Shown piece by piece: positions 6,001-9,000 of a DNA stretch of 20,966 nt; the stretch's first letter is position 1; the number at the start of each line of letters is the position of its first letter. The stretch comes from a virus (lineage: Duplodnaviria; Heunggongvirae; Uroviricota; Caudoviricetes), in IMG/VR virus record IMGVR_UViG_2737471839_000026, positions 1-20,966 of that record; one strand, 5' to 3'. A program made the position numbers.

Positions 6001-9000
6001 GTTGTTGCCAAGATCGATAGTATCCATGTTGACCTCATTTCCCCTTAACGCCGGGGTAGCGGAACAAAAACCTGCTGCATAGTTAAAGTTGAACCCTGCC
6101 GTCATGTTCTTACGCCTCGGGCTGGCTACTTACCCCCTGACCACTGCCTGGTAACTCGAAGTATTGCCCTGCGTTCTGTGGGACGGGGTGGGCTGATGCA
6201 TAAACAATACCACTGCTATTTAATCATGTAAATAGCAATGCTATTATTGCAGCAAGAAAAAAACCACCCGAAGGTGGTTTTTGACAGAAATGATTAACAG
6301 CTTTTGTTTGGATACTGCCTTCGTGAGTGAACTACATTTACGATCTCGATGTTAGATGTTGTTACTCGGTAAAGTATTATGTAGTTAGGATGAGTCACTA
6401 TTTCTCGAAGACTTGGAACTCTTTCGCTCGGTGGGTACAGATAAGGGTGTTCAGTAAGTGACAAAACTGATGTTTCAATGCGTATTTTTAGTCTACGTGC
6501 AGCGGGAGGGTTTTCTTTAGCAATATAGGCTACTATCTGACGTAAATCCTCACGTGCAGAAGGTAGCCATAAAATGGGCAGCATTACTCACTCCTGTTCG
6601 TTGCAGCTAATTGAGCAATAAGGTTTTCCATTTCAGCCATTACTTCATCATGCGGAATTGCAGGACGGGGATCTGCGAGGCTTGCTGCCACTTTGGCTCG
6701 CAACCATTCGTTATAGCTGTTTTCTTGTTCGACCGTTTCAAATTCAGAAATTATCGGGGAAAGGGCTGTACTCATGTTTTGACCTCCTCAGATTAGGCGC
6801 GACGACTTTTTTGCGCAGCTAGCCATCGCGCAACGATTTCTTCAATTGATTCTTTTTTCTCCTTCATTTCCTTAAGCATTTTCTCTTTATCTTCTTTGGG
6901 GAAAGCCCTGAACGTCTGGAGCAAATCCCGCTCCATGGGGTCTATATTAAACGGAAGTTCGTTTTCCGATTGTTCCATATCGGCAGATATAGTGACAACA
7001 TTGTCCTCCCCAGATTCTTGGGGATACATCCTTACAATTTGTAACAACTCGGCCATATCTGGTCTGATTGACTCGGGAGGAACTTGCAGTAACCCTGCGA
7101 ACTTGATAACAGCCTCAAGATTTAAAGGTGTCTGACCATTTAGATAATGGCTTACAGCTCCCTGTGTCGAAAATCCCAGAATTTCTGCCGCACGCTCTTG
7201 GGTTAACCCTAGTTGATTTTTTTTCGCCGTCCAGATTTCTTTTAGTCTCTGGGCGGCTTGCAGGTCGATCTCTGACAGGGATTTTCTTTTCATACCTTCA
7301 ATTCTAATAAGATTATTAATCTCTTTGAAATAGTAGTGCTATTTACTTTCAAAAATAACAATGCTATTAATGATCGTAATGACATCACATGAGGTGAACA
7401 ATGAATCTTGGAGAATATTTGCGTTATTCCGGTATAACTCAGAAACATTTTGCTGAAATTGTTGGGGTAACCCAGGGGATGGTAAGCCATGTCATTACCG
7501 GGCGGGCGAAACTTACGGGGGAAAAAATTTTACGTTGGTGTGAAGCAACTGGCTGGATAGTAACTCCGCACGAGATTGATAGCACTTCTTATCCCAACCC
7601 AACCGACGGCTTACCTGTCGAGTGTCAGGCTAACACACAACCAGAGACGGGGGTGATTCATGAAAATCAAGCATGAACACATCCGCATGGCGATGAATAC
7701 CTGGGCGCGTTCTGATGGCGAAAAAGTTCCAGCAGCTGGAATAACCCAGGCTTATTTCGAACTGGGAATGACGTTCCCGGAACTGTACGACGACAGCCAT
7801 CCGGAAGCCCTGGCTCGTAATACCCAGAAAATTTTCCGCTGGGTGGAGAAAGACACCACTGATGCGGTTGAAAAAATTCAGGCGTTGTTACCAGCGATCG
7901 AAAAAGCAATGCCTCCTCTGCTGGTGGCCCGAATGCGCAGCCACAGTTCAGCCTGGTTTCGGGAGCTGGTGGAGACGCGGGAACGACTGGTGAGAGACGC
8001 TGATGATTTTGTTGCAGTGGCGATCGCTGGTTTCAATCAGATGAATCGTGGTGGTCCGGCGGGAAATGCCCTGGTGATGCACTAAAAGCACGGTGTTCGG
8101 AGTTTTTTTATGAGCAGCAAGCTTCATGGTCTTGTCTGGGAAGGGTGCGCCTTCACCGGCATGATCTTATCCAGGGTGGCAGTAATGGCTCGCCTTGCAG
8201 ATTACAGCAATGACGAAGGTGTGTCATGGCCTGCAGTGGAGACCATTCGTCGTCAGATTGGGGCAAAGAGTGAATCAACGGTTAAAGCTGCGATAGCAGA
8301 ACTGGAAAAGAACGGCTGGCTGACGAAGGAAGAACGTAAGGTCGGTGGGCGTAATGAAAGCAATATCTACCGTCTTAATGTGGAAAAACTCGAAGCAGCA
8401 GCAGCGGCGGCGCGTGAGGCATATAAACCGAAAAGAAAAATCAACCCGGTAAAAAATGACCCGTCAAATATTGGCCCCTCAACGGTTGACCCGTCAAATT
8501 TTGATGGATCAACAGTTGATAAAAAACAGCCGGTTAGGGGGGCGATGGTTGGCCCCGATCCGTCAGTATTAAAACCTGAGCCGTCAGATAAAAGATCTTC
8601 TTGTCCGGACGCTTCGCAACCGGACCCGCAGATGGCTGAACAGGATTTTTTAACCCGACACCCTGACGCGGTTGTGTTCAGTGCGAAAAAACGCCAGTGG
8701 GGTAGCCAGGAAGATTTAGCGTGTGCGCAGTGGATCTGGGGACGAATCGTGAGTCTTTACGAGCAGGCTGCCAGCGATGATGGCGAAATCATGCGACCGA
8801 AAGAACCCAACTGGACTGCATGGGCCAATGATGTGCGCACAATGCGGATGCTGGATGGCAGAACTCACAGACAAATTTGCGAAATGTTTGGTCGGGTACA
8901 GCGGGATCCATTCTGGGTAAAAAACGTCATGAGCCCGTCAAAGCTTCGCGAAAAATGGGATGAGCTGGTTATTCGTCTGGGGCGTTCGCCTGTACAGCGT

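Follow-up and report, generated by a model that had tools for sequence, protein, structure and literature searches.

The genes paaR2-paaA2-parE2 belong to the cryptic prophage CP-933P of Escherichia coli O157:H7 (Hallez 2010; Jurenas 2021, PMC8630535), and experiments have placed them in the immunity region of that prophage (PMC8630535, PMC9986795). The paaR-paaA-parE organisation was first described as a three-component toxin-antitoxin (TA) system (review PMC4803016). PaaR2 acts as the CI analogue; its gene is leaderless by experiment, and the protein lacks an S24 domain and gives no response to mitomycin C (PMC8630535). It serves also as the regulator of the TA pair, without autocleavage of the RecA type (PMC8630535), and is reported to have no sequence similarity to CI. 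PaaR2 forms octamers and binds both OR and OL (PMC8630535). YdaS corresponds to Cro and YdaT to CII (PMC8630535, PMC9986795); YdaT activates PRE, and the YdaT site, TTGATT-N6-AATCAA, lies at the end of ydaS (PMC9986795). The TA pair of CP-933P is transcribed in both states of the switch, and the PaaA-ParE complex partly represses the promoter too. Jurenas et al. (PMC8630535) saw ParE2 activity in neither state. When carried on an unstable plasmid, the locus makes it more stable through post-segregational killing (PMC8630535).

Short HTH repressors without an S24 domain also occupy the cI position in Qin (DicA) and in the Gifsy prophages (GfoR/GtgR). DicA is antagonised by Rem, and the Gifsy repressors by antirepressors (PMC10448788, PMC3121763). 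GfoR and GtgR resemble the N-terminal part of cI and are inactivated by the LexA-controlled proteins GfoA and GftA (PMC3121763).

Here we analyse a stretch of 20,966 bp from a lambdoid prophage of E. coli, referred to as the window. Its minus-strand segment 6294-7293 is very probably a lysogenic operon of the PRM type, which encodes an immunity repressor together with a PaaA-ParE addiction cargo. The original prediction had proposed an S24-less repressor that doubles as the regulator of a TA pair; our results support this, and the principle is already published for PaaR2 of E. coli O157:H7 (PMC8630535). What is new is a third DNA-binding specificity, with a lambda-cI-like head, on the same framework, a concrete predicted operator (AATAGCA-N-TGCTATT), and the observation that the slot behind this class of repressors repeatedly gathers TA cargo.

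Layout of the operon

The original prediction had read three ORFs on one strand, for an HTH repressor, a PaaA2-like antitoxin and a ParE-family toxin, and then a terminator. The three ORFs are on the minus strand, exactly at the coordinates given, and a terminator follows them (Table 1). The family matches of antitoxin and toxin, the upstream HTH gene and the gene order agree with the paaR-paaA-parE organisation.

The paaA product matches the Pfam family PaaA2 with E=3.5e-23 (81.7 bits, the cutoff being 27) and aligns with PaaA2 in the PDB (3zbe, E=1.8e-23) with 40 of 54 residues identical. A Pfam profile search finds no DNA-binding domain in it. The parE product matches ParE_toxin with E=3.3e-18, and 61 of 93 residues are identical to ParE2 (PDB 5cw7, E=9.5e-37). 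The closest TA alleles are of the PaaR1-PaaA1-ParE1 type, found in a prophage adjoining yccA (L002) and in strain RM9088 (L004); identity with the O157:H7 paralogues in L002 is 84% for the antitoxin and 86% for the toxin.

The stop codon of the repressor gene and the ATG of paaA are 17 nt apart, with the Shine-Dalgarno sequence GAGGAGG inside this gap. The antitoxin gene lies immediately 5' of the toxin gene, and the two overlap by one base (TAATG). The single terminator of the operon, located after parE and ahead of the leftward promoter, starts 12 nt past the parE stop and consists of a 10-bp hairpin and a run of seven U, with an energy of -13.1 kcal/mol (z=-4.33 against shuffles). The 17-nt gap, the Shine-Dalgarno sequence and the single terminator suggest that the repressor, paaA and parE share one transcript. 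On the other hand, the promoter scan gives a promoter-like site at 6998..6969 within the repressor gene, which could allow the TA pair to be expressed independently of the repressor. The same three genes are annotated by RefSeq in 70 complete E. coli genomes.

Table 1. Features of the immunity region in the window (coordinates in bp; strand given as + or -, or as. where a feature has no direction).
Feature	Position	Strand	Basis or description
ydfA-like gene (DUF1391)	5875..6030	-	PF07151 E=3e-28; RefSeq annotation in L001
PL-like promoter TTTACA-17-TATTGT, upstream TG	6204..6232	-	promoter scan
OL, two operators	6206..6245	.	motif search
intrinsic terminator after repressor-paaA-parE	6259..6282	-	terminator scan and fold energy
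parE toxin gene (96 aa)	6294..6584	-	ParE_toxin PF05016
paaA antitoxin gene (63 aa)	6584..6775	-	PF21217 PaaA2
immunity repressor gene (166 aa)	6793..7293	-	ORF start/stop and HTH_3
repressor residues 114-166	6793-6954		helical hairpin common to PaaR1, PaaR2 and DicA
repressor residues 91-113			disordered linker
repressor residues 1-90	7024-7293		lambda-cI-like five-helix DNA-binding domain
immunity-specific cassette	6928..7588	.	blastn segment boundaries against L002 and L004
PRM-like promoter TTCAAA-17-TAGAAT	7301..7329	-	promoter scan
candidate weak third operator (AATAAGATTATTAAT)	7306..7320	.	found by eye, putative
operator OR-a (AATAGTAGTGCTATT)	7329..7343	.	motif search and conserved position
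PR-like promoter for ydaS-ydaT, TTTACT-17-TATTAA	7342..7370	+	read by eye, putative
operator OR-b (AATAACAATGCTATT)	7354..7368	.	motif search and relatives
ydaS-like cro analogue (91 aa)	7401..7676	+	HTH_3 E=5.9e-6
inverted repeat GTGATTCATGAAAATCAA at the ydaS/ydaT junction (PRE position)	7653..7670	.	look-alike of the YdaT site
ydaT-like cII analogue (141 aa)	7660..8085	+	PF06254 E=3.6e-10

Domain structure of the repressor

The repressor matches HTH_3 in Pfam with E=9.9e-10, and a phmmer comparison with lambda cI's N-terminal domain (1lmb) gives E=1.5e-9 with 34 of 89 residues identical (38%). With the repressor model as query, the best Foldseek matches are lambda cI N-terminal domains at probability 1.00, with TM scores of 0.81-0.93 (normalised to the target) and an rmsd of 1.1-1.6 Å. 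Across the repressors of relatives, residues T43-N52 of the recognition helix vary hardly or not at all.

For Peptidase_S24 (PF00717), no match to the repressor appears in Pfam or NCBIfam even at E<=0.1, and the AlphaFold model is all-helical, without a beta-rich C-terminal domain. The expected lack of a LexA-like S24 domain is thus borne out. As a positive control we used P0031 (245 aa), whose N-terminal domain is of the same type; PF00717 matches it with E=4e-11. P0031 thus combines this kind of N-terminal domain with a genuine S24 domain, and it looks quite different from the 166-aa repressor.

The tail of the repressor shares 48% identity over 87 aa (E=2e-23) with the PaaR1 type and, by BLASTP, 51% over 61 aa (E=2e-17) with P0044, a proxy for PaaR2 whose two ends agree with the primers published for paaR2, as does an internal AFPEDEQ motif. 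BLASTP against K-12 DicA gives 27% identity over 51 aa (E=2e-5); the NCBIfam DicA model NF007257 matches at positions 75-131 with E=1.4e-7, its 31 bits being far under the cutoff of 101. In contrast, BLASTP finds no alignment between the N-terminal domain of the window repressor and those of PaaR1 and PaaR2, and the DNA-binding domains of PaaR1 and PaaR2 differ from each other too. That of the PaaR1 type resembles the 434 repressor (PDB 2r63, E=3e-5), not lambda cI. The 166-aa protein is not a full-length orthologue of PaaR1 or PaaR2, as only the C-terminal ~55 aa match (48-51%). The suggested likeness to PaaR therefore holds for the tail and fails for the DNA-binding domain, which is of the lambda cI type. 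Because the N-terminal domains are unrelated, operator and regulatory data from PaaR1 and PaaR2 are not directly transferable to this locus.

We propose that the tail takes the place of the S24 domain, which serves autocleavage and oligomerisation in lambda CI, and, by analogy, the repressor may oligomerise through the tail. Neither the window repressor nor the PaaR1-type protein, used as query, retrieved a solved PaaR structure; the tail fold given here therefore comes from the AlphaFold model only. A tail-only search of 1.8 billion representative proteins returned 11 matches, too few to map the distribution of the tail.

Predicted operators and promoters

A 15-bp palindrome, AATAGCA-N-TGCTATT, is present in four copies, two in OR and two in OL. 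The motif search returns these four sites with at most two mismatches in the 20,966 bp, where 0.16 are expected, and none of 100 shuffles reached four; the copies of this palindrome are confined to OR and OL. The repressor most likely binds them as an oligomer.

In OR, OR-a adjoins the -35 of the PRM-like promoter and is centred 43 bp upstream of the ATG of the repressor gene, a position kept in L003, L005, L006 and L008-L013. OR-b, at a spacing of 25 bp from OR-a, shares bases with the -10 region of the putative rightward (ydaS) promoter, which was not called by the promoter scan. A candidate third operator with five mismatches lies in the PRM spacer, 23 bp from OR-a; its counterpart in L005 has only three mismatches. 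In OL, 1.1 kb from OR, the two sites (6206-6220, AATACCACTGCTATT; 6231-6245, AATAGCAATGCTATT, a perfect palindrome) are again 25 bp apart and overlap the PL-like promoter, which serves the leftward ydfA...dicB operon. In relatives whose repressors are 57-90% identical, the motif again occurs as pairs spaced by 25 bp, at OR and on the far side of the cargo, and PaaR1-type loci show different repeats at the same OR and OL positions.

With its -10 ending 7 nt ahead of the repressor ATG, the PRM-like promoter probably yields a leaderless repressor mRNA. The same -10-N6/7-ATG geometry is seen in the PaaR1-type loci L002 and L004. At the ydaS/ydaT junction, GTGATTCATGAAAATCAA has one mismatch to the published YdaT site.

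Comparison with known switches and proposed working

The operon is located at the cI/dicA position of a lambdoid prophage, with the cro-like ydaS and the cII-like ydaT divergent from it. To the right of ydaS-ydaT are an O-like replication gene and a Q-like gene; to the left of the operon are ydfA...dicB, exonuclease, xis and int. The window resembles CP-933P in gene order, in the divergent ydaS-ydaT partner, in the position within a lambdoid immunity region and in the absence of S24, as well as in a -10 whose position suits a leaderless start, in the presence of operators at OR and OL, and in the YdaT-site look-alike. It differs in the lambda-cI-like N-terminal domain, in the length of the repressor (166 aa, against 123 aa for PaaR2) and in the operators, which in CP-933P are 18-bp repeats with the half-site GTTTAGTAA.

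With lambda cI-rexA-rexB, the window shares the fold and sequence of the N-terminal domain, palindromic operators with a spacing of ~25 bp in two places, one on either side of the repressor operon, an operator whose centre is ~43 bp upstream of a start of the leaderless type, and cargo genes that are probably co-transcribed behind the repressor. Unlike lambda, it lacks the S24 C-terminal domain, its recognition-helix residues and operator sequence are different, its cargo is a ParE TA pair instead of RexAB, and YdaS and YdaT stand in place of Cro and CII. DicA is likewise encoded upstream of ydfA...dicB and shares its C-terminal motif with the window repressor, but no TA pair is present behind DicA, and the DicA antagonist Rem has no homologue in the window.

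In the switch that we propose, by analogy with the experimentally studied CP-933P, a repressor oligomer would bind the two OR and two OL palindromes and possibly the weak third site. The bound repressor would silence both the rightward ydaS(cro)-ydaT(cII)-replication operon and the leftward ydfA...dicB operon, of which the ydfA-like gene would be the first that OL represses, and the repressor would also control its own promoter. As cargo on the repressor transcript, paaA and parE would occupy the slot of rexAB in lambda, and the transcript would stop at the terminator just before OL/PL. Since the pair would be carried on the repressor transcript, its expression would be tied to the prophage switch. 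Control by the repressor would not be exclusive, because in CP-933P the TA pair is on in both states and PaaA-ParE also represses. Based on that system, we infer that ParE is toxic and neutralised by PaaA, and the pair would most likely act as an addiction module which penalises loss of the immunity region.

Induction and alternative readings of the locus

The window carries a SubAB-like cytotoxin prophage. The S24 C-terminal domain of lambda is missing in its repressor, so no RecA-stimulated cleavage is expected, and the lysogeny switch of this prophage would not follow the classical SOS/RecA cleavage route. As the switch would avoid that route, the trigger that induces the toxin phage would not be predictable from the lambda/Stx-phage model.

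A small antirepressor, encoded elsewhere in this or another prophage, might instead bind the non-cleavable repressor; we regard this as a tentative possibility, rather doubtful as it stands. Analogy with DicA-Rem and the Gifsy repressors makes this part of the original prediction plausible, since short S24-less repressors resembling the cI N-terminal part and DicA itself are inactivated in this way (PMC3121763, PMC10448788) and the window repressor has the C-terminal motif of DicA, but the window itself lends it no support. Pfam and PHROGs scans of the other ORFs in the window reveal no Ant, Bro, Rha, KilA-N or DinI domain, small antirepressors being poorly covered by profile models; tblastn finds no Rem homologue in the window, L001, L004, L006 or L016, and the window has no credible LexA box. 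O104:H4 2009EL-2071 contains a complete-looking prophage with this immunity type, in which likewise neither an annotated antirepressor nor a Rem homologue is present and the only good LexA-like box is at the start of a DNA-methyltransferase gene. Moreover, CP-933P and Qin switch spontaneously without any antirepressor. We speculate that an antirepressor could dock on the tail and in this way determine how all these prophages are induced.

Three candidates in the window were rejected. The ORF 13162-13488, which takes the rem position of Qin, is unrelated to Rem. An exact match to CTGT-N8-ACAG at 13131-13146 has a GC-rich middle and is located upstream of a second parD; for these two reasons it is probably a ParD operator. 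A LexA-like match at 4166, within coding sequence where dicB meets DUF1482, has seven mismatches.

A different reading concerns the cargo: paaA-parE may act in the lysogen mainly against other phages, by abortive infection or exclusion, like rexAB, and not as an addiction module. The position in the rexAB slot (PMC9986795) fits this idea, as do the other toxin-type cargoes that relatives carry in the slot behind the repressor (HipA_2 with DUF3037, or HigBA, a HigB with an HTH antitoxin) and the lack of ParE2 activity in either switch state (Jurenas et al., PMC8630535). However, the homologous locus stabilises a plasmid by post-segregational killing, the PADLOC defence models match none of the three proteins, and a defence phenotype is unreported in the literature covered. 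We consider an anti-phage role unlikely.

The HTH protein could also be the regulator of a three-gene TA module only (a 'split antitoxin') and not the immunity repressor of the prophage, in line with the first description as a three-component TA system and with a PaaA that has no DNA-binding domain. This is very improbable. The same palindrome covers a second promoter past the terminator, which drives ydfA...dicB, and the gene occupies precisely the place of cI/dicA, facing the cro- and cII-like genes. Furthermore, paaA-parE is missing from relatives in which the N-terminal domain and the operators are the same, and DicA has the same tail with no TA pair.

RecA-stimulated self-cleavage at a cryptic site, already considered unlikely in the original prediction, can be dismissed almost entirely, as we found nothing that supports such a site: besides the absent S24 match and the different appearance of the genuine S24 version P0031, the 50-aa C-terminal helical hairpin of the model would leave no room for a Ser/Lys dyad fold, the sole Ala-Gly dipeptide (residues 66-67) lies inside helix 4 of the DNA-binding domain and not in the linker, and PaaR2, which has the same tail without the motif, is unresponsive to mitomycin C (PMC8630535).

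The immunity-specific cassette and its distribution

DNA homology to the PaaR1-type loci ends at window position 6923-6927 and resumes at 7589, and blastn finds none to L002 or L004 within the cassette in between. The cassette contains the N-terminal domain and linker of the repressor, OR and the N-terminal part of YdaS, with the first ~63 codons of ydaS inside it. YdaS of the window is 42% identical to that of L002, mostly in the C-terminal part, and YdaT is 86% identical. Of 5426 complete E. coli genomes, 72 (~1.3%) carry the cassette, among them an O104:H4 strain.

We put forward one further idea, which we hold to be improbable in its full extent: the ~50-aa tail common to the window repressor, PaaR1, PaaR2 and DicA may be a portable replacement of S24 linked to the cargo slot, with heteroimmunity arising by cassette swap. 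If so, heteroimmune prophages would arise by exchange of only the repressor DNA-binding domain, the operators and the N-terminus of cro (6928-7588). The linked ParE would then kill recombinants that lose the slot, and the TA pair would steer the evolution of the immunity region.

A megablast search of the phage database with window 6200-7400 gave no match. An Rfam scan of the window shows three tRNAs only, and no DicF. No genome among the 5426 complete ones of E. coli reaches a coverage of 80% of the window. Strain RM9088 (L004) has the same prophage backbone at ompW, with 99.9-100% identity over 1-5563 and 12308-20966. The window is a mosaic, which combines an RM9088-like backbone with an immunity block of the type found in strain 08-00022.

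The immunity operon and its published counterpart

The three tightly packed minus-strand ORFs of the original prediction lie at exactly the coordinates claimed for them (see table). A 17-nt gap with GAGGAGG separates the stop codon of the repressor gene from the ATG of paaA, and the paaA and parE reading frames share one base. The paaA product matches crystallised PaaA2 (3zbe; E=1.8e-23) with 40 of 54 residues identical, and the parE product matches crystallised ParE2 (5cw7; E=9.5e-37) with 61 of 93. The locus is a real, well-formed immunity operon of the paaR-paaA-parE type.

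In CP-933P, a cryptic O157:H7 prophage, the immunity region contains the paaR2-paaA2-parE2 system (Jurenas et al. 2021, PMC8630535). PaaR2 is a functional CI analogue with a leaderless mRNA; it forms octamers and binds OR plus an OL/PL region. YdaS and YdaT fill the roles of Cro and CII, with YdaT activating a PRE-like promoter. The locus is addictive and its switch bistable (PMC8630535). In this arrangement, paaA2-parE2 replaces rexA-rexB and PaaR2 replaces CI (PMC9986795). In light of these reports, the ideas that the repressor doubles as the TA regulator and lacks S24 autocleavage are correct but already published for CP-933P. New here are the repressor head of lambda cI type, the operator predictions, the limits of the cassette and the variety of cargo in the slot.

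Coordinates of features in the window
Feature	Position	Strand	Details
Repressor gene	7293..6793	-	166 aa; HTH_3 E=9.9e-10
paaA antitoxin gene	6775..6584	-	63 aa; Pfam PaaA2 E=3.5e-23, 81.7 bits vs cutoff 27
parE toxin gene	6584..6294	-	96 aa; ParE_toxin E=3.3e-18
Terminator hairpin	6259-6282	-	3' of parE; 10 bp + U-run; -13.1 kcal/mol, z=-4.3
Immunity-specific cassette	6928-7588		repressor head + OR + YdaS N-terminus; homology gap vs PaaR1-type loci
Promoter-like site TTCAAA-17-TAGAAT	7329..7301	repressor strand	-10 seven nt ahead of ATG
Leftward promoter TTTACA-17-TATTGT	6232..6204	-	faces ydfA...dicB; overlapped by OL sites
Putative YdaT site GTGATTCATGAAAATCAA	7653-7670		ydaS/ydaT junction; one mismatch vs published YdaT site
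parD, second parDE module	13080..12823	-
parE, second parDE module	12817..12518	-
Features accompanying AB5 cluster	14908-15462, 16099-16812, 16839-17085

Modular architecture of the repressor

As predicted, the repressor gives no Peptidase_S24 match (Pfam and NCBIfam, even at E<=0.1). Its first 90 residues resemble the lambda cI N-terminal domain in a sequence search (E=1.5e-9, 34/89 identical). The AlphaFold model (mean pLDDT 76.6) displays five helices (residues 8-89), disorder over 91-113 and a helical hairpin spanning 119-165, and its best Foldseek matches are all lambda cI N-terminal domains (target-normalised TM 0.81-0.93, rmsd 1.1-1.6 Å).

In contrast, the N-terminal domain of the PaaR1 type is like that of the 434 repressor. 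The O157:H7 paralogue in the prophage adjoining yccA was assigned to this type because its TA pair differs from the crystallised PaaA2/ParE2; its BLASTP alignment with the window repressor is limited to residues 91-166 (48% identity). As a proxy for PaaR2 we chose P0044, a 123-aa protein that starts with MQKKEIRRL, contains AFPEDEQ, ends in QKCRRA, and agrees with the published paaR2 primers and N-terminal protein sequence. It aligns only over residues 107-166 (51% identity). DicA has the tail motif in common with the window repressor (NCBIfam DicA model positions 75-131, E=1.4e-7; BLASTP E=2e-5). Metagenomic relatives of about 244-255 aa (P0013-P0022, contigs L008-L013) have a complete PaaR1-like protein appended to a window-type head, and so two tandem HTH domains, and true S24 fusions exist elsewhere for N-terminal domains of the window and PaaR2 types (P0031, P0073). 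The repressor family is thus modular, with interchangeable heads and one common short tail.

We notice that the tandem-HTH relatives of L008-L013 have a head recognition helix identical to that of the window repressor, lie opposite ydaS/ydaT-like genes and share the same palindromic operators.

Immunity cassette and cargo slot

PaaR1-type loci share DNA homology with the window across ydfA, parE, paaA and the repressor tail; the match ends at window 6923-6927 and restarts at 7589 within ydaS, on through ydaT. This break therefore delimits an immunity-specific cassette, which is like the classical imm434 and imm21 substitutions. Of 5426 complete E. coli genomes, 72 contain the cassette, and 70 of these 72 include the full repressor-TA region at the megablast level. 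The most divergent carrier examined, L005 (E. coli RMDEC465; cassette DNA identity 77.5%), has the TA pair as well.

Among relatives, the gene content behind the repressor varies. The tandem-HTH relatives have HipA_2 and DUF3037, or small ORFs alone, directly after the repressor; a Salmonella relative (50% identical) has HigB and an HTH antitoxin as cargo; and DicA has no cargo behind its gene. A repressor of this class need not be accompanied by the TA pair, so the tail is no TA sensor. Judged by these gene neighbourhoods, the slot behaves as a cargo site like that of rexAB, and the comparison suggests a recurrent site for toxin-type modules behind this repressor class. The HipA_2 (PF20613) and DUF3037 cargo lies at 4787-6360 in L008-L010, and HigB with its HTH antitoxin at 9612-10339 in loci L014/L015.

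Predicted operators and promoters

A 44-nt stretch between repressor and ydaS recurs directly past the parE terminator with 75% identity, and both copies contain the 15-bp palindrome AATAGCA-N-TGCTATT. Allowing up to 2 mismatches, the 20,966 bp hold only four such sites, at 7329 and 7354 (OR) and at 6206 and 6231 (OL), spaced 25 bp apart in each pair. By chance, 0.16 sites would be expected, and four sites arose in 0 of 100 shuffles. The palindrome positions are kept in the variants L003, L005 and L006, whose immunity-cassette DNA is 77-97% identical to the window's. Other repeats occupy the OR and OL positions in PaaR1-type loci; the OL repeats are type-specific too. Recognition-helix residues T43-N52 are invariant or nearly so in metagenomic repressors just 57-61% identical. 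As an independent check, L008-L013 carry the same palindrome paired in the repressor/cro gap and again past the cargo genes.

The seven-nucleotide distance from -10 to ATG implies that the repressor mRNA is probably leaderless, like those of cI and paaR2. The -10-N6/7-ATG geometry is also found at the yccA-adjoining locus and at that of E. coli RM9088 (L004). The centre of OR-a, the site at 7329, lies 43 bp upstream of the predicted leaderless start, a placement presumably comparable to lambda OR2 at PRM, and 7306-7320 is a candidate for a weak third operator. The published YdaT site, TTGATT-N6-AATCAA, is placed at the end of ydaS (PMC9986795).

Induction route

An antirepressor had been suggested as a possible route of induction. 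There is precedent for this, as Rem antagonises DicA and the LexA-controlled GfoA/GftA antagonise Gifsy repressors (PMC10448788, PMC3121763). A search of the window for an antirepressor-type domain, a Rem homologue or a credible LexA box found none. Neither an annotated antirepressor nor a Rem homologue is present in the complete-looking same-immunity prophage of O104:H4 2009EL-2071, so neither the window nor this prophage lends the suggestion support. An equally good candidate would be the spontaneous, bistable switching seen in CP-933P and Qin. RecA-type self-cleavage is very unlikely, as originally proposed, because S24 is absent, the tail is helical and the sole Ala-Gly lies within helix 4.

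The 2009EL-2071 prophage (L016) contains a good LexA-box look-alike, AACTGGATATTTTTACAGTA, at 31957-31976, with 4 mismatches to the 20-mer consensus. It marks the 5' end of a prophage DNA-methyltransferase gene and is the sole SOS-type signal seen in a prophage of the window's immunity type. In the leftward operon of L005, ydfC and dicB flank a gene for a Rha-family regulatory protein (147-998), which the window lacks. Rha-family proteins are sometimes antirepressor-like.

Prophage context and other toxin modules

The whole window belongs to a lambdoid E. coli prophage inserted beside ompW. Leftward of the locus are ydfA (DUF1391), dicB, DUF1482, an 823-aa exonuclease, xis and int; rightward are cro-like ydaS (HTH_3), ydaT (PF06254), an O-like replication gene and nin-region genes, and further right a Q-like antiterminator, tRNAs, the AB5 toxin cluster and lysis genes. 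The window has dicB (4174-4362) but, in contrast to the dicBF operon of Qin, no DicF sRNA, for which Rfam gave no match anywhere in the window at the gathering threshold.

No complete E. coli genome contains the whole window, and none reaches 80% coverage. RM9088 matches positions 1-5563 and 12308-20966 at 99.9-100% identity. The immunity block 5885-8067 belongs to the strain 08-00022 type (97% identity overall and 100% across 6200-7400), and 8067-12308 is largely of other origin than either. By this comparison, the window is a mosaic.

A second, canonical two-gene parDE module lies in the nin region (12518-13146), giving the prophage two ParE-family toxins. The perfect palindrome CTGTTGACGACAACAG at 13131-13146, 50 nt upstream of the second parD, is more likely a ParD operator than a LexA box.

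We also observed a SubAB-like AB5 cytotoxin cluster at 17482-19409 with an unusual B-A-B' order. It encodes a 137-aa SubB-like protein (PDB 3dwa, E=2e-42), a 343-aa SubA-like subtilase (PDB 2iy9, E=5.6e-157) and a 144-aa second B-like protein, just 45% identical to the first. Around it are the Q-like antiterminator (DUF1133), an AraC-like regulator, tRNAs Met-CAT, Arg-TCG and Arg-TCT, and a holin. The stx genes of Stx phages occupy the equivalent slot. The cluster is 100% identical in RM9088, a crow isolate.
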